Source: an uncultured Ruminococcus sp.
Lineage (GTDB): Bacteria; Bacillota; Clostridia; Oscillospirales; Acutalibacteraceae
Assembly (NCBI GenBank): GCA_902796475.1
Contig: CADBPE010000013.1
Coordinates: 1 to 56,764, forward strand
DNA: 56,764 bases
Direction of reading: 5' to 3'
Part shown: positions 1 to 56,764 of the stretch, in pieces
Layout: the number at the start of each line of letters is the position of its first letter
Position numbering within the stretch: position 1 is the stretch's first letter
Notes under the pieces: generated by a model
What the model was told of the DNA's origin: nothing
The model's input: the letters and a program-made list of their open reading frames with translations, nothing else
The model's database searches: none
Translations under genes and position numbers: made by a program

Positions 1-2
1 GT

Positions 3-72
3 CTGGGGGAGAACCCTTTGTTTCTAACAAAGGGTTTCCCCCAGTATGACTTGCCGCGCAAAATTGATTTCC
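3..72 (+). repeat. Type-A intergenic element, copy A1 (G5/C5 hairpin 3-44 plus TTGATTTCC box 64-72)
   Basis: CTGGGGGAGAACCCTTTGTT-TCT-AACAAAGGGTTTCCCCCAG hairpin followed by TATGACTTGCCGCGCAAAATTGATTTCC. The same composite recurs at 17944-18013(-), 28523-28579 and 56619-56665, and in degenerate form at 8539-8596(-). Confidence 0.85.
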
Positions 73-93
73 GCAGGGTTTTCGAGAAGTGTA

Positions 94-122
94 TTGACCC
101 AAGGCGGGAAATATGCTATACT
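94..122 (+). promoter_or_regulatory. Sigma-A type promoter of proBA (TTGACC-N17-TATACT)
   Basis: -35 at 94-99, 17-nt spacer, -10 at 117-122, about 55 nt upstream of the proB ATG. Confidence 0.6.
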
Positions 123-3823: not shown

Positions 3824-3912
3824 GCGCAGAGTCTGCGCACCCGAAATATCAAACAAAAACACAAAAGCTTGCCGCAAAACCCGAAAAAGCTGCGCTCACC
3901 GCCGCAAGTTTG
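3824..3912. repeat. Type-B modular repeat, copy B1
   Basis: GCGCAGAGTCTGCGC palindrome, then CCCGAAATATCAAACAAAAACACAAAAGCTTGCCGC. This is related to 27708-27965 and to the reverse complement of 37861-38159. Confidence 0.7.
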
Positions 3913-8490: not shown

Positions 8491-8519
8491 ATAATACTAT
8501 TTATTATATATATTGTCAA
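8491..8519 (-). promoter_or_regulatory. Promoter of the Zn-ribbon/TPM operon (TTGACA-N17-TATTAT)
   Basis: Minus strand: -35 at 8519-8514 and -10 at 8496-8491. The Type-A box starts 30 nt upstream, at 8549. Confidence 0.55.
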
Positions 8520-8538
8520 GTAAAATCGCAGTGTGAGC

Positions 8539-8596
8539 GGGAAAATCAATTTTCGATCAATTTCGCGCTGTATGCTGTACCGGTGTAGACCCTTTT
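8539..8596 (-). repeat. Type-A element, degenerate copy A6
   Basis: The minus strand reads AAAAGGGTCTACACCGGTACAGCATACAGCGCGAAATTGATCGAAAATTGATTTTCCC. It aligns to the Type-A consensus with an 11-bp internal duplication. Confidence 0.65.
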
Positions 8597-8616
8597 CTGA
8601 AAAACTGATTTATGGC

Positions 8617-17892: not shown

Positions 17893-17922
17893 ATTATATC
17901 ACACCACCCTTGCTGACATCAA
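17893..17922 (-). promoter_or_regulatory. Promoter of the xth-ABC operon (TTGATG-N18-TATAAT)
   Basis: Minus strand: -35 at 17922-17917 and -10 at 17898-17893. The Type-A box starts 30 nt upstream, at 17952. Confidence 0.55.
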
Positions 17923-17943
17923 CCTTTTTAAGGCAATATTCAC

Positions 17944-18013
17944 GGAAATCAATTCTGACTTGCAAGTTACACTGGGGGAACCCCTTTGTTAGGAACAAAG
18001 GGTTCTCCCCCAG
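17944..18013 (-). repeat. Type-A element, copy A2 (hairpin 17972-18013 plus box 17944-17952)
   Basis: CTGGGGGAACCCCTTTGTT-AGG-AACAAAGGGTTCTCCCCCAG. On the minus strand this is followed by GTGTAACTTGCAAGTCAGAATTGATTTCC. Confidence 0.85.
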
Positions 18014-18084
18014 ACCCCCTTCCTAAAAAACTTGTATTTTATTATAGCTTATAGAGATACCATATAAAAACCGGAATTTTTATA

Positions 18085-23489: not shown

Positions 23490-24395
23490 ATGAAATCAAA
23501 GGTTTGGAAACTCTTAGCTGTAGCTATGGCAGCAGCGCTTATCGCTTGCGCAGGCGCAGGCTGCGGCAATAAAGACAACAAGTCACAGCAGAGCTCAACG
23601 ACATCTGCCGCATCAACGACCGAGTCTGCTGCTTCAGCTGAAGAAAGCAAGAAGGAAGAGAGCAAGGCTGAGGAAAGCAAAAAGGAAGAAAGCAAGACTG
23701 AGGAGAGCAAGACAGAAGAAAGCAAGACCGAAGAGAGCAAGACCGAGGAATCCTCCGAGGAGCCAAGTGAGGAGTCCGAAGAAGAGTCTGAGCAGGAGTC
23801 TGAGGAGGAGTCCGAGGAGGAGTCCGAGGAAGAATCACCTGCAGCGACCGAGATCACGGCTGCTGATGTTGCCGGCTGCTATGAGTACGGTACAGGCGAT
23901 CAGTATATTGGCTTTATTCTTTCCGATGACGGCAACCTTAACTACAGAACGTCAAACGGATACACAATGAACGGCAATTGGGCGCTTGAGGGCACAAAGG
24001 TTACAATGCATATAGCCGGCGGCGCACAGTCAGTAGAATATCAGGACGGCAAGCTGGTCGATGACAGCGGTTCAGAGCTTACTGCGGTAGAATCTCTTTC
24101 CGTAGAGGATAATACCGACAATATTGTTTTGCAGGCGGCTACGTCAGGCACTTGGTACCGTTCCACAGATGACGGCGTAAATGTCAGCTTCACTCTTAAT
24201 GAGGACGGAACAGGCAGCTACATTGCCGGCGCTCAGGAGTTTACCGCTACATGGGAGGTATCGGACGGCGGTCTGACGATCTATGTTGAGGGCGGCGCAG
24301 AGAGACTGATATTCGGTATTTCTGCTGACGAATCGATCAAATTTGTTGATCCTGAGGGCACATACTCATTCAGTAAGTATACCGGCGAAGAATAA
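23490..24395 (+). CDS. Lipoprotein with acidic EESK/EES repeat linker
   Basis: MKSKVWKLLAVAMAAALIAC lipobox, then (K/T)EESK x8 and SEE repeats, then two similar beta-rich modules. Confidence 0.7.
   Translation: MKSKVWKLLAVAMAAALIACAGAGCGNKDNKSQQSSTTSAASTTESAASAEESKKEESKAEESKKEESKTEESKTEESKTEESKTEESSEEPSEESEEESEQESEEESEEESEEESPAATEITAADVAGCYEYGTGDQYIGFILSDDGNLNYRTSNGYTMNGNWALEGTKVTMHIAGGAQSVEYQDGKLVDDSGSELTAVESLSVEDNTDNIVLQAATSGTWYRSTDDGVNVSFTLNEDGTGSYIAGAQEFTATWEVSDGGLTIYVEGGAERLIFGISADESIKFVDPEGTYSFSKYTGEE
23639..23835 (+). repeat. In-frame 15-bp and 9-12-bp tandem repeats (EESK/SEE)
   Basis: GAAGAAAGCAAGACN-type units repeated about 8 times, then GAGGAGTCC-type units. Confidence 0.85.
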
Positions 24396-27707: not shown

Positions 27708-27965
27708 GCCCGCGCCGCAGAGCCTGCGGCGGCAAGCTGCCGCTCCCGATTTCGCCGGCGCAGAGCCTGCGGCGGCAAGCTGCCGCTCCCGATTTCGCGT
27801 TCACAGATAAACAAGCGAAAAGTAATCACCCGCGCCAAAAAATATCATCCCAAAACTCAAACACAAAAGTTTCGCTGCAAGCCTTTTCAAAGGCTTGGCG
27901 CAGAGCCTGCGCACCCGATTTCGCGTTCATAGATAAACAAGCGGAAATGTAATTGCCCGCGGCTG
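27708..27965. repeat. Type-B modular repeat array, copy B2
   Basis: 43-bp tandem duplication (27714-27756 / 27757-27799) of GCAGAGCCTGCGGCGGCAAGCTGCCGCTCCCGATTTCGC. CCCGATTTCGCGTTCAnAGATAAACAAGCG occurs twice, 125 bp apart. Confidence 0.85.
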
Positions 27966-28440: not shown

Positions 28441-28522
28441 CCTGTTATGATAAATTTTGCACGCAGCCGCATAAAACACAATTTTTTCAGAAAAATGCTC
28501 TGTAAAATTCAGCAGTTTTAGG

Positions 28523-28579
28523 AAAGGGGTTTCCCCAGAGTAATCTGCAAATCAAAATGGATTCGAAAAATTGATTTCC
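28523..28579 (+). repeat. Type-A element, copy A3 (half hairpin plus box)
   Basis: AAAGGGGTTTCCCCAGAGTAATCTGCAAATCAAAATGGATTCGAAAAATTGATTTCC. Confidence 0.75.
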
Positions 28580-28600
28580 CGGCAAGCGCTTACTGAAATA

Positions 28601-28629
28601 TTGACAAAGTGCGGTTAAAGGTGTATAAT
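28601..28629 (+). promoter_or_regulatory. Consensus promoter of the tetR-PPTase operon (TTGACA-N17-TATAAT)
   Basis: Perfect -35 (28601-28606) and -10 (28624-28629). The Type-A box starts 30 nt upstream, at 28571. Confidence 0.7.
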
Positions 28630-29987: not shown

Positions 29988-30226
29988 TCCGTCCTTGGCG
30001 ATGGCCGTGAACCGGCGCTTTTTCTGCTGCGTTCAGAAACGCAAAGGCTTAGTTCAATGCGGCAGGCTGACGCTCTCGATTTCTCTTTGATAGTTTACCC
30101 GCAAAGAAAGGTGCGCACAGCGATTCTTCCAAGTGCAAACCGTTAAGCTTTGGCGGCTTTTGTACGGAAAGAACGCCTGATTTGATAAAAAATATCAAAT
30201 TCGTTTCGAAATAATGCCATAAGGGT

Positions 30227-30329: not shown

Positions 30330-31397
30330 ATGACAAAGATCGATATTTTTTCCGGATTTTTAGGCGCCGGAAAAACCACCCTTATAAAGAAACTTATCAA
30401 GGACGGCTATCAGGGTGAACAGCTTGTCCTTATTGAGAACGAATTCGGAGAGATCGGCATTGACGGCGGGTTTCTCAAGGAAGCAGGCATACAGATCAAC
30501 GAGATGAATTCCGGCTGCATCTGCTGCTCATTGGTAGGCGACTTCCGCCAGGCTCTTAATAAGGTGCTTGAAGAGTACCATCCTGACAGGATAATTATTG
30601 AGCCTTCGGGCGTTGGCAAGCTTTCCGACGTTATCAATGCCGTAAAGACCGTTGCAAATGAAGATGTAGTGCTCAACAGCTTCATTACCGTTGCAGACGC
30701 TACAAAGTGCAGGATCTACATGAAGAACTTCGGCGAGTTCTACAACAACCAGATCGAAAGCGCAAGCACCATTATCCTCAGCAGAACGCAGAATGTGACT
30801 GATGAAAAGCTGGAGGCTGATCTTGAGCTTCTCAGAGCGCATAACACCAAGGCGGCTATCGTTACCACACCATGGGATCAGCTTACCGGCGCTCAGATAC
30901 TTGCGGCTACCGAGGGCAAGGCTCTCCTTACGGTTGACGATGTTCATCCGGAGGACGAATGTGACGATCCCGAATGTGAGTGCCACCATCACCACCACCA
31001 TGACGAGGACGAGCATGAGCATCATCACCATCACCATGACCACGATGAGGACGAATGTGACGATCCGGAGTGCGAGTGCCACCATCATCACGACCATGAG
31101 GGACATCACCACCATCACCACCATGCGGACGAAATTTTTGTAAGCTGGGGCAAAGAGACCACAAAGAAATATACTCAGGAGCAGATCAAGGATATCCTTA
31201 ACGCTCTTTCGGACGAGGCAAAATACGGTCTTGTCCTCAGAGCAAAGGGAATTGTGCCTGCGCCTGACGGAACATGGGTACACTTTGACTTTGTGCCGGA
31301 GGAAGCCGATGTGCGCACAGGTACGGCTGACTATACGGGCAGGATCTGCGTGATAGGCTCAAAGCTCAACGAGGCGGCTCTTGCGGAGCTTTTCTGA
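30330..31397 (+). CDS. COG0523/CobW-family metallochaperone GTPase with His/Cys-rich insert
   Basis: Walker A GFLGAGKTT and a GCICCS (CxCC) motif. A roughly 60-aa HHHHHH/ECDDPECEC insert precedes a CobW_C-like tail. AAGGAGAG SD then ATG 30330. Confidence 0.85.
   Translation: MTKIDIFSGFLGAGKTTLIKKLIKDGYQGEQLVLIENEFGEIGIDGGFLKEAGIQINEMNSGCICCSLVGDFRQALNKVLEEYHPDRIIIEPSGVGKLSDVINAVKTVANEDVVLNSFITVADATKCRIYMKNFGEFYNNQIESASTIILSRTQNVTDEKLEADLELLRAHNTKAAIVTTPWDQLTGAQILAATEGKALLTVDDVHPEDECDDPECECHHHHHHDEDEHEHHHHHHDHDEDECDDPECECHHHHDHEGHHHHHHHADEIFVSWGKETTKKYTQEQIKDILNALSDEAKYGLVLRAKGIVPAPDGTWVHFDFVPEEADVRTGTADYTGRICVIGSKLNEAALAELF
30951..31091 (+). repeat. Internal 96-bp-period duplication encoding EDECDDPECECHHHH
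   Basis: GAGGACGAATGTGACGATCC(C/G)GA(A/G)TG(T/C)GAGTGCCACCATCA occurs at 30951 and again at 31047. Confidence 0.85.
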
Positions 31398-32374: not shown

Positions 32375-32377
32375 GCA

Positions 32378-32488
32378 GCGCAGGCTCTGCGCCGGCAAGC
32401 TGCCGGTCCCAATTTACTCTTTGAGAGGTCTGAACCGCCGGCAGTGCATTTCTCTCCAAAGACTGATTCGGGAGCGCAGGCTCTGCGC
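32378..32488. repeat. Type-B palindromic sub-family, copy B4
   Basis: GCGCAGGCTCTGCGC at both ends (32378-32392 and 32474-32488). These enclose CGGCAAGCTGCCG and inverted arms TCCCAATTTACTCTTTGAGAG / CTCTCCAAAGACTGATTCGGGA. Confidence 0.75.
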
Positions 32489-32548
32489 AAATCTGTAAAT
32501 AATGACAAAAAAGCCGTATCGTCACAAAGGGCTGTGAGGATACGGCTT

Positions 32549-37860: not shown

Positions 37861-38159
37861 TTAAGAATACAAAACACAAAAGCTTCGCTCAAGCTTTTTC
37901 ATAGGCTTGAGCGAAGCTTTGTTGTTTGGTTTTTGGTTTGATATTTTTGAGCGCGGTCTGCTGCGTTTCCGCTTGTTTATCTGCGAACGCGCAATCGGGA
38001 GCGGCAGCTTGCCGCCTTGAGCGAAGCTTTGTTGTTTGGCTTTTGGTTTGATAATTTTGGGCGCGGGCTGCTGCGTTTCCACTTGTTTATCTATGAACGC
38101 GAATTTGGGAGCGCAGGCTCTGCGCCGCCGGCGGCTGTCAAGGATCTGATAACATCGCA
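37861..38159. repeat. Type-B modular repeat array, copy B5 (reverse orientation relative to B2)
   Basis: About 120-bp unit repeated in tandem (37906-38025 / 38026-38135). Its reverse complement matches the B2 modules (GGCGGCAAGCTGCCGCTCCCGATT..., AGATAAACAAGCGGAAA). Confidence 0.85.
37879..37935 (+). terminator. Strong terminator embedded in the Type-B array
   Basis: 16-bp stem AAAGCTTCGCTCAAGC/GCTTGAGCGAAGCTTT followed by GTTGTTTGGTTTTT. Confidence 0.8.
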
Positions 38160-46340: not shown

Positions 46341-46384
46341 AAAAAAATACCGGCAGTTCACAATGGACTGCCGGTATTTTGTTG
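46341..46384. terminator. Bidirectional terminator
   Basis: 11-bp stem ATACCGGCAGT/ACTGCCGGTAT flanked by A7 and TTTTGTTG. Confidence 0.8.
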
Positions 46385-46589
46385 TGACTGCAAGTTATAC
46401 TATTATCATATTAATTGATAGATAAAAAACACGGTTTTCGGGGGTGTCGGGGGGACTTTTTTCTAAAAGTCCCACTGACTCGCTGCCCGCAGGCAGCGAA
46501 ATCCTTATACTGCAAGCGCTCCGCAAGGCGTGACGGATGGAGTGATTTTGAAGAACGAACCATCTGTCAGCTTCACTGACATCCCCGGA

Positions 46590-55812: not shown

Positions 55813-56309
55813 GCGCGGCTCAAAGCATAATACACCCGTTTCCGCCGCTGTTTGATAAGGCTTCGGAAACGTTGATACTGGGCAGCTTTCCGTCGGTGCG
55901 CTCGCGTGAACAGGGATTTTTCTACGGACATCCGCAGAATCGTTTCTGGCGTGTGCTTGCGCTTATCTTCGATGAAGAGCTGCCCTCTACAATAGACGAG
56001 AAGAAAAAGATTGTGCTGAGTCATGGGCTTGCGCTGTGGGATTCGATACACTCCTGCACGATAACCGGTTCCTCAGACAGCTCTGTAAAGGATGTCGTGC
56101 CTAACGATATCAGCGGGATCATCAGCGGGAGCAGAATATCAAGGATATTCTGCAACGGCGCTCTGTCTCACAAAATGTATATGAAGTATATTTATCCCTC
56201 TGCCGGCATAGCTGCGGCAAAGCTGCCCTCGACAAGTCCTGCAAATGCAGCATGGTCAGTGCAAAGGCTCGTTTCCGCGTGGAGCGTGATAAAAGCGCCC
56301 TGTCAATAG
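55809..56309 (+). CDS. Uracil-DNA-glycosylase-superfamily protein (hypoxanthine/deoxyinosine DNA glycosylase-like)
   Basis: ATG 55809. ILGSFPSVRSREQGFFYGHPQNRFW matches the family-6 UDG-type N-terminal motif as I recall it. Confidence 0.65.
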   Translation: MSAAQSIIHPFPPLFDKASETLILGSFPSVRSREQGFFYGHPQNRFWRVLALIFDEELPSTIDEKKKIVLSHGLALWDSIHSCTITGSSDSSVKDVVPNDISGIISGSRISRIFCNGALSHKMYMKYIYPSAGIAAAKLPSTSPANAAWSVQRLVSAWSVIKAPCQ

Positions 56310-56390
56310 CAGCTTGATATTTCGCCGTCTGCGGGCAGTGAATGAACGTGACTTTTGCGAAAAAGTCCCATTTTGTATGACCTGCAGAGC

Positions 56391-56431
56391 AAAATTGATT
56401 TCCCTGATTCCGTCACACGGAAATCAATTTT
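56391..56431. repeat. Type-A box inverted pair, copy A5
   Basis: AAAATTGATTTCC-N15-GGAAATCAATTTT, with perfect 13-bp arms. Confidence 0.8.
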
Positions 56432-56528
56432 CAAAAAACCAATCCGTTCGAGAAGAAAGCTTTACTAAATTTCGCAATGTTTTAATCACAAAACACAAGT
56501 TTTTTAGGAAGGACGGAAAGCCTCCGCA

Positions 56529-56610
56529 CCCGAATTAGTCTTTGGAGAGAAATCTACTTTCAATATATAATATCTCTCAAAGAGTAATTCGGGACCGGCA
56601 GCTTGCCGGT
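56529..56610. repeat. Type-B palindromic sub-family, copy B6
   Basis: Arms CCCGAATTAGTCTTTGGAGAG ... CTCTCAAAGAGTAATTCGGG, followed by ACCGGCAGCTTGCCGGT. Same arm sequence as 32378-32488. Confidence 0.75.
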
Positions 56611-56618
56611 TGTTCCTG

Positions 56619-56665
56619 ACAAAGGGTTTCCCCCAGTGTAACTTGCAGCGCAAAAATTGATTTCC
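56619..56665 (+). repeat. Type-A element, copy A4
   Basis: ACAAAGGGTTTCCCCCAGTGTAACTTGCAGCGCAAAAATTGATTTCC. Confidence 0.85.
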
Positions 56666-56764
56666 GTGATTCCGTCAGCCAGGGTTTTTGAATGAGTAAA
56701 TAAACTGTTAACAGGTTTGTATTTTTATCATGATTTCTTACGAAATCATGATAAAAGCAATGGA

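Follow-up and report, generated by a model that had tools for sequence, protein, structure and literature searches.

Dispersed repeats at a fixed distance from promoters in an uncultured Ruminococcus: probable footprints of a promoter-targeting ISAs1-type transposon

Why does the same short box recur at one fixed distance upstream of the promoters of unrelated operons? The stretch in question is contig CADBPE010000013.1 of an uncultured Ruminococcus sp. (assembly GCA_902796475.1), analyzed over its whole length of 56,764 nt and called the window here, and the element in question is a repeat made of a hairpin followed by the 9-mer box TTGATTTCC. An earlier reading of the bare letters, the original prediction, had listed copies of this repeat and reported a constant 30 nt between the box and the −35 hexamer at four operons. 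All the listed copies were found where it had placed them, and the constant spacing was confirmed. The exact 9-mer occurs six times in the window, always in intergenic DNA, and the hairpin arm, ACAAAGGGTTTCCCCCAG, has three copies where 0.02 would be expected; positions 1–73 match positions 17943–18015 in inverted orientation over 73 nt at 88%. The box precedes the −35 by 30 nt at proB (64 to 94), xth (17952 to 17922), tetR (28571 to 28601) and the gene of a 371-aa Zn-ribbon protein (8549 to 8519), and a 17–18-nt spacer and a TATAAT-like −10 follow all four hexamers. In the window DNA outside open reading frames (ORFs), a promoter of equal quality falls at one fixed offset with a frequency of 0.0017, and finding four of the six right ends of the window at the 30-nt spacing has a P value of ~1e-10. 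Furthermore, a fifth case stands in a different genome, on contig L001 of the rumen metagenome-assembled genome (MAG) RUG267 (contigs other than the window carry L numbers here). When the offset of the box was scanned against 86 strong promoter-like sites in all the sequences gathered, the box (with at most one mismatch) lay only at −30 (six times) or −29 (once); further copies in related genomes keep the 30-nt distance too.

We consider it very probable that these repeats are the footprint left by a promoter-targeting ISAs1-type transposon and by its derivatives, miniature transposable elements with inverted repeats (MITEs), and that they are neither an activator site nor a promoter cassette. 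The features on which this explanation builds were observed directly, namely the anatomy of the repeats, their insertion polymorphism, an autonomous partner, the fixed distance and orientation, promoters older than the insertions and a lack of dependence on local sequence. The original prediction was right to see here a dispersed, mobile and unannotated element with a strict positional tie to sigma-70-type promoters.

What is the box? We observed that it forms the core of a 16–23-bp terminal inverted repeat, 5'-CACGGAAATCAATTTT...AAAATTGATTTCCGTG-3', of a non-coding, MITE-like element of ~70–250 nt that is flanked by 9-bp target-site duplications and dispersed in several copies; seven inverted-repeat ends lie in the window. 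The two ends of the element diverge from each other beyond 16 nt. The copies, with the target DNA and promoters next to them, are as follows.

Positions 1–75, plus strand: right part of MITE copy c1, which runs on left of the window start, with the hairpin at 3–44, a segment resembling a transposase 3' end at 44–63 and the inverted-repeat core at 60–75 (AAAATTGATTTCCGCA).
Positions 76–122, plus strand: target DNA of c1, with the 9-nt duplication position at 76–84 (GGGTTTTCG), a 9-nt linker at 85–93 and the predicted proB promoter (−35 TTGACC at 94–99; −10 TATACT at 117–122).
Positions 8491–8537, minus strand: target DNA of c4, with the predicted promoter of the 371-aa gene (−35 TTGACA at 8519 to 8514; −10 TATTAT at 8496 to 8491).
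Positions 8538–8600, minus strand: degenerate MITE copy c4, with an inverted repeat holding one extra T at 8553 to 8538 (AAAATTGATTTTCCCG), a tandem-doubled box at 8554–8564 and a decayed hairpin remnant.
Positions 17893–17940, minus strand: target DNA of c2, with the 9-nt duplication position AATATTGCC at 17940 to 17932, then a linker and the predicted xth promoter (−35 TTGATG at 17922 to 17917; 18-nt spacer; −10 TATAAT at 17898 to 17893).
Positions 17941–18040, minus strand: MITE copy c2, with the left module ACAAGTTTTTTAGGAAGG at 18035 to 18018, the hairpin at 18013 to 17972, the segment at 17972 to 17953 and the inverted repeat AGAATTGATTTCCGTG at 17956 to 17941; the left inverted repeat is absent.
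Positions 28504–28582, plus strand: MITE copy c3, with a variant left module, a hairpin collapsed to GGGGTTTCCCC, a doubled box and the inverted repeat AAAATTGATTTCCCGG at 28567–28582.
Positions 28583–28629, plus strand: target DNA of c3, with 9 nt (CAAGCGCTT), a 9-nt linker and the predicted tetR promoter (−35 TTGACA at 28601–28606; −10 TATAAT at 28624–28629).
Positions 46383–46400, minus strand: remnant of the segment adjoining the inverted repeat (AGTATAACTTGCAGTCAC), from which the repeat is missing.
Positions 56375–56406, plus strand: right end of a truncated MITE, consisting of the segment and the inverted repeat AAAATTGATTTCCCTG.
Positions 56407–56415: left 9-bp target-site duplication, ATTCCGTCA.
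Positions 56416–56668, plus strand: complete MITE, with the left inverted repeat CACGGAAATCAATTTTC at 56416–56432 and the right one, AAAATTGATTTCCGTG, at 56653–56668.
Positions 56669–56677: right 9-bp target-site duplication, ATTCCGTCA.

The two copies of ATTCCGTCA form a perfect direct repeat, 250 nt apart, that abuts both tips of the element at 56416–56668. This complete MITE was inserted into the 9 nt adjoining the tip of the older truncated copy, and the two copies consequently stand in tandem; a different palindromic repeat (56513–56609) is nested in its left hairpin arm, and the region 56319–56665 as a whole is a mosaic of repeat families. The inverted pair of boxes that had been described at 56391–56431 is indeed present, but it consists of two copies that meet there, one with its right end and its neighbor with its left. 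Likewise, the unit itself exists as described but reaches further left: its hairpin is preceded by ACAAGTTTTTTAGGAAGG, and full copies hold another box in inverted orientation. Copy c1 starts with ACAAGTTTTTTAGGAAGG ahead of its hairpin, as does c2, and its leftward extension, ACAAGTTTTTTAGGAAGGGAGT, is visible in the same-species contigs L009, L010 and L011, found through ProB. In L001 the order is inverted box, ~95-nt spacer, left module, hairpin and box, after which come 21 nt of unrelated sequence, then TTGCAA, 17 nt and TATACT. From inverted box to box, the unit has the architecture of the complete window MITE minus the nested insert. Terminal inverted repeats were also seen in L001, L025 and L018. 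The hairpin shows compensatory changes at 4 of its 19 pairs between subfamilies and may serve transposition, RNA stability or insulation; as had been reported, it has no U-tract, and this holds for both strands. A terminator hairpin was therefore rejected, most copies moreover lying between divergent genes. The scan of the genome collection with the hairpin arm returned only two rumen MAG contigs, and that of the metagenomes one true relative and five chance matches. The inverted repeat gave eight chance-like matches without element structure in viral contigs, and a BLAST search with copy c2 matched no plasmid or phage sequence. Over the whole window, no Rfam family reached its gathering threshold, and no tRNA or tmRNA was detected by the scan for them.

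The box is thus described as a transposon end, and the strains around the proB locus allow this to be followed by insertion. Orthologous proB loci were gathered through ProB homologues, and five of them (L022–L026) are from strains with identical ProB that differ only in the valS–proB spacer. The site is filled in L025, which reads CAC GGAAATCAA...TTGATTTCC GTG with CGGGTTTGC on either side (in longer form, CAC GGAAATCAATTTTC...AAAGTTGATTTCC GTG), and it is precisely empty in L026, which has a single CGGGTTTGC followed by ATTTTCTTA and TTGACC. The filled and empty sites together identify the box as a terminal inverted repeat and show that insertion duplicates 9 bp. L022 and L023 are without the left part of the element and L024 is without its right end; the absence of the left end from window copies c1–c4 is consistent with the deletion series in L022 and L023. 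Furthermore, the proB promoter, TTGACC-17-TATACT, is kept in L014–L017 (94% ProB) without box or hairpin, in L018 (93% ProB) with the box and with different upstream DNA, and in L019–L021 (the same ProB as L018) with another repeat in that place. Similarly, the Zn-ribbon promoter, TTGACA-17-TATTAT, is kept in L014 and L015 without any box. Since both promoters are unchanged in relatives without the element, promoters are its targets and not its cargo; together with the proB promoter kept at the L026 empty site, this means that the promoters pre-date the insertions.

Where is the enzyme? BLAST of the L025 element against plasmids, in which only the left end matched, led to a 1231-bp element on the Ruminococcus albus 7 plasmid pRUMAL01 that has 22–23-bp perfect inverted repeats of the same sequence and is flanked by the 9-bp duplication TACATTTAC. 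Its one ORF, of 372 aa, matches the ISAs1 family transposase model NCBIfam NF033564 over positions 1–314 of 314 (284.9 bits, cut-off 70) and carries the Pfam domains DDE_Tnp_1 (PF01609) and DDE_Tnp_1_assoc (PF13808). The transposase stop codon is the TGA inside TTGATTTCC, and the MITE segment beside the right repeat (CTTGCAGCGCAAAAATTGA) resembles the transposase 3' end in related insertion sequence (IS) copies (GTTGTCGGCCAAAATTGA). Duplications of 8–10 bp are the ISfinder range for the ISAs1 family. The transposase has 2438 homologues at E ≤ 1e-40; autonomous IS copies also occur in gut and rumen metagenome contigs, and the contigs of five homologues with 69–80% identity were analyzed. The autonomous copies (L039–L058, for example, L039 1452–1500) have a predicted promoter of their own in and beside the left inverted repeat (IRL), TTGAAA-16-TATAAT, which ends ~7 nt before the transposase ATG and suggests a leaderless or very short-leader transposase mRNA.

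The autonomous copies show the same geometry as the MITEs. The flank of their right inverted repeat (IRR) reads GTG, 9 nt, 9 nt, TTGACx, 17–18 nt and TATAAT at 12 of 15 independent sites (L038, L039, L040, L042, L044, L045, L049, L052, L055, the L059 group, the L063 group and L070), with matching 9-bp duplications on both sides in L038, L039, L040, L045, L049 and L059 and a match at 7 of 9 positions in L063; for 9 of 12 autonomous IRR sites at the exact spacing, P is ~1e-21. The promoter is always on the stop-codon side, that is, at the IRR, and never at the IRL, save for the inverted case L046 at 17 nt, and the gene downstream is always co-directional with the transposase. Among 12 MITE right ends, seven lie 18 nt and two 17 nt from a −35 and three have no promoter, while none of the MITE left ends shows the promoter geometry. 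In a consensus of 19 targets, positions 1–18 carry no information, followed by TTGAC at 19–23, with TTG invariant, and TGnTATAAT at 37–47. The 30-nt distance from box to −35 is therefore the sum of 12 nt (TTGATTTCCGTG), the 9-nt duplication and 9 further nt. As for the statement that the nucleotides between box and −35 share no sequence, the 21 nt are unrelated among the copies, save for the first three (GTG), which belong to the inverted repeat. Three copies were examined of a homologous enterobacterial ISAs1 element (33% identity) on Escherichia coli plasmid NZ_CP010131.1; none has a promoter at 18 bp, and the targeting consequently appears specific to the Clostridial clade.

How could such a distance be kept? 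Very probably, the window repeats are non-autonomous MITE-like derivatives of an ISAs1-family IS of rumen and gut Clostridia whose transposition duplicates 9 bp at the target. In this clade the transposase would place the element so that the IRR tip lies precisely 18 bp upstream of the −35 hexamer in a resident promoter of the sigma-A type, the 18 bp being the 9-bp duplication plus 9 bp; the DNA in between is unrelated target sequence. Later deletions would strip mostly the promoter-distal part, and the one-ended copies of hairpin, segment and repeat at proB, xth, tetR and the Zn-ribbon gene would be what they left. The transposase would presumably measure from a promoter feature and, by analogy with TnGBS, would most likely contact promoter-bound RNA polymerase/sigma-A: the −35 and extended −10 are conserved in the targets and the cut sites are not, which makes recognition of bound sigma-A holoenzyme the most economical model. 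Possibly, the transposase reads TTGAC directly. The fixed orientation would probably come from asymmetric use of the two element ends.

Could the box instead be a cis-regulatory site, with the spacing under selection and the repeat only its carrier? The original prediction had offered as one option an upstream promoter module with an activator site or a site for the C-terminal domain of the RNA polymerase alpha subunit (alpha-CTD), and indeed the 16-nt AAAATTGATTTCCGTG is centered at about −61.5, the classical class-I position. Its A-tract and TTGAT resemble an FNR half-site or a distal UP subsite. Furthermore, the ISAs1-family IS1548 upstream of lmb and murB alters expression (PMC2875397, PMC8744998). 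Against a class-I activator or alpha-CTD/UP-like site, the box is not conserved with the promoter: the proB and Zn-ribbon promoters of close relatives persist without it, and it is present, deleted or never inserted among strains with identical ProB. It stands as an inverted repeat at both ends of a transposase gene, where it holds the stop codon, and it is flanked by 9-bp duplications; left ends with the same box never face promoters, and the downstream genes are functionally unrelated and spread over many genomes. We therefore regard a cis-regulatory site as improbable. The likenesses to CodY, FNR/CRP half-site, Spo0A-box and UP-element motifs fit few bases only and leave the duplications unexplained. 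Still less probable is the other suggestion of the original prediction, a mobile cassette that carries the −35 and −10 along, seeds unrelated operons and has a merely diverged 21-nt gap. It would account for homologous upstream DNA before non-homologous genes, and the autonomous element does have an internal promoter, yet at its other end, the IRL. The sequence identity, however, stops sharply at the repeat tip, 9-bp duplications intervene between tip and −35, target positions 1–18 are without information, and the L026 empty site and the element-free orthologues keep the promoter. A single longer conserved repeat that includes the −35 and −10, a case which had been allowed for, is not what was found.

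Might insertion be random in intergenic DNA, with only the harmless or beneficial copies 18 bp from a −35 surviving selection? All our data are standing copies and include no de novo events, and a few copies lie elsewhere (past the metK stop codon, between convergent genes and inside genes). A tolerance filter, however, would give a broad distribution from a minimum distance and not a single-nucleotide peak. Very recent insertions, in polymorphic strains and in multi-copy IS with identical transposase, are already at the exact spacing and orientation, and two successive insertions went into the same 9 bp (56407–56415). The same behavior in TnGBS was experimentally shown as targeted, according to the account in PMC3942029, which cites Brochet 2009. 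Selection after random insertion is thus about as improbable as a cis-regulatory site. Least probable, to the point of being negligible, is that the repeats are MITEs of the ISLre2/TnGBS family (Mutator-like, p-MULT 3), a known targeter of sigma-A promoters. The 9-bp duplication, the oriented insertion and a distance inside the published 14–18-bp window would fit it, and the same communities hold ISLre2-type (UPF0236) genes (L041). The partner transposase, however, is ISAs1 by NCBIfam and Pfam and not UPF0236/Mutator; the tips are 5'-CAC...GTG-3' compared with 5'-G...C-3' in p-MULT elements and are homologous to those of the enterobacterial ISAs1 element (CAGGGAAAAATCATG / CACGGAAAAATCATG); and the distance peaks at 18, not 16. 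Elements derived from REP/BIME (repetitive extragenic palindromes and their mosaics, with RAYT transposases) or from IS200/IS605, suggested by a hairpin 19 nt from ATCAA, were rejected in view of the inverted termini, the 9-bp duplications and the DDE partner.

Several points weigh against promoter targeting by an ISAs1-type transposon itself. Most of the promoter-adjacent copies in the window (c1–c4) lack a left inverted repeat or a verifiable duplication, so that their assignment to a transposon depends on homology with the complete ones; a target duplication is readable in only two MITE copies, the one with ATTCCGTCA in the window and the one with CGGGTTTGC in L025, while that of L018 is decayed (6/9). 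Neither an autonomous copy nor a transposase gene was found within the window or in the ~60 kb of same-species DNA examined, so that current mobility in this genome is no more than possible. No recognizable promoter follows the ends at window position 56668, L010-1139, L018-15897 and L056, and the IRR end in L041 abuts an ISLre2-type repeat in place of a promoter. The left flanks do not match in L044, L062, L064 and L070, Logan/ENA contigs that may be assembly chimeras at the repeat. Finally, all the promoters discussed here are predictions from consensus.

Some copies and neighboring repeats deserve mention in their own right. In L041 (1167–1320), the ISAs1-type IS ends 10 nt from an ISLre2/UPF0236-type tip (GTGTAAAATAAAAGTAGG...), an arrangement that fits two promoter-targeting IS families inserting successively at one promoter. 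In L010, a reversed variant hairpin with compensatory stem changes (985–1060) lies ~30 nt past the metK stop codon, and a solitary box (1135–1147) lies between convergent genes; neither shows a promoter association. A second repeat family occupies window positions 3824–3844, 27713–27961, 30043–30108, 32376–32491, 37866–38132 and 56513–56609. Its unit consists of a small GC hairpin, either GCGGCAAGCTGCCGC or GCGCAGAGCCTGCGC, with (A/T)CCCGAWTT and ~25 nt after it, often in ~95-nt palindromic pairs, with one copy nested in the MITE, and its copy number varies among strains (L012 compared with the window; L022–L026). In relatives its hairpin ends 15–21 nt upstream of a −35 (L022 16034, L022 351, L019), and this family may also be promoter-associated. 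Furthermore, a shared module, ATTTCGC..GCGGGCAG..GGGACTTTTT..AAAGTCCC, at 46452–46502 and 56319–56369, mutually inverted, precedes remnants of the inverted-repeat-adjacent segment in both places; it probably forms the core of yet another, third MITE subfamily. Immediately to the left of the window start, in the species of the window (L009 858–5863; L010 4651–9656), an island of McrB-like AAA_5 and LlaJI-type restriction genes stands before proB, a place held in relatives by a hypothetical gene and then an AMP-binding enzyme, valS or rtcB. Two coding tandem repeats, at 23640–23836 and 30951–31132, have 15-nt and 12-nt periods and encode an acidic E/S/K-rich stretch and His/Asp/Glu-rich repeats; the His/Asp/Glu-rich protein is possibly metal-binding.

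What would follow if this explanation is true? A spacing that is conserved while the sequence is not can be left behind by a promoter-targeting transposase and need not point to an activator. We also lean, though only slightly, towards a broader claim, namely that a Clostridial ISAs1 clade (IS4-like DDE; 69–100% identical, more than 2000 metagenome relatives) evolved oriented insertion with single-nucleotide precision 18 bp upstream of sigma-A promoters, independently of the Mutator-like TnGBS/ISLre2/ISKra4 elements, and gave rise to the MITE families that now precede housekeeping promoters of rumen bacteria (proBA, valS, xth, purA and others). Provided that the ISAs1 assignment and the 18-bp rule are correct, promoter targeting arose at least twice in unrelated DDE transposases; this would be a case of convergent promoter targeting with the first promoter-targeted bacterial MITE, would strengthen the idea of a general safe-harbor strategy and would offer, in a 372-aa enzyme, a second compact system in which to study the reading of a promoter or of RNA polymerase/sigma-A by a transposase. 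The inverted-repeat tips would mark promoters of uncultured rumen Clostridia at single-base resolution. The elements also account for assembly breaks in these MAGs, as the same-species contigs L012 (12865–13297) and L013 end or hold N-gaps in the repeat cluster that corresponds to window positions 56300–56764. Directly upstream of promoters, the MITEs may modulate the expression of downstream genes, by analogy with IS1548 in streptococci.

How does the element compare with known systems? We found no report of promoter targeting for ISAs1 elements or MITEs, only scattered hints for ISAs1, and a prior description is possible. A large survey records an enrichment of ISAs1 between convergent genes and does not flag the family for promoter targeting (PMC9208149), IS1548 has also been reported inside genes, and a MITE review does not mention promoter-targeted MITEs (PMC10969869). 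The Correia elements of Neisseria resemble the window MITEs in being short, non-coding, structured and intergenic, in having terminal inverted repeats and target duplications and in a frequent position just upstream of genes; on the other hand, they duplicate TA and have promoters of their own (PMC10969869), whereas the window MITE has no outward promoter at its promoter-proximal end and its position would be set by the target promoter. The autonomous partner is like ISAs1-family elements (IS1548, enterobacterial ISAs1) in its full-length match to the family model, its size of ~1.2–1.3 kb, its single ORF, its 9–10-bp duplications, its tips, CA(C/G)GGAAA...TCA, and its stop codon inside the IRR; the enterobacterial element likewise has homologous tips (CAGGG/CACGGAAAAATCATG) and its stop codon in the IRR. 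In its behavior the element is closest to the Mutator-like TnGBS, ISLre2 and ISKra4 group, which inserts in one orientation 15–17 bp upstream of a sigma-A −35 (window 14–18) with 8–9-bp duplications (Guerillot et al. 2014, PMC3942029; Brochet et al. 2009); for TnGBS, contact of the transposase with promoter-bound polymerase has been proposed by analogy with Ty3 (PMC3942029). Both show a fixed short distance upstream of a sigma-A −35 (18 bp here), one particular inverted repeat on the promoter-proximal side in fixed orientation, an 8–9-bp duplication, no sequence need at the insertion point and Firmicute hosts. They differ in the transposase (Mutator-like/UPF0236 compared with DDE_Tnp_1/ISAs1), in the distance (16 compared with 18, although the published counting convention may differ) and in the tips, the p-MULT inverted repeats being of 18–39 bp with a conserved terminal C and tips GAGCGT, GAACGT and GACAGA (PMC3942029, Table S1). 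Furthermore, the window copies are MITEs without a transposase. The present element thus works like TnGBS and ISLre2 but is not a member of their family.

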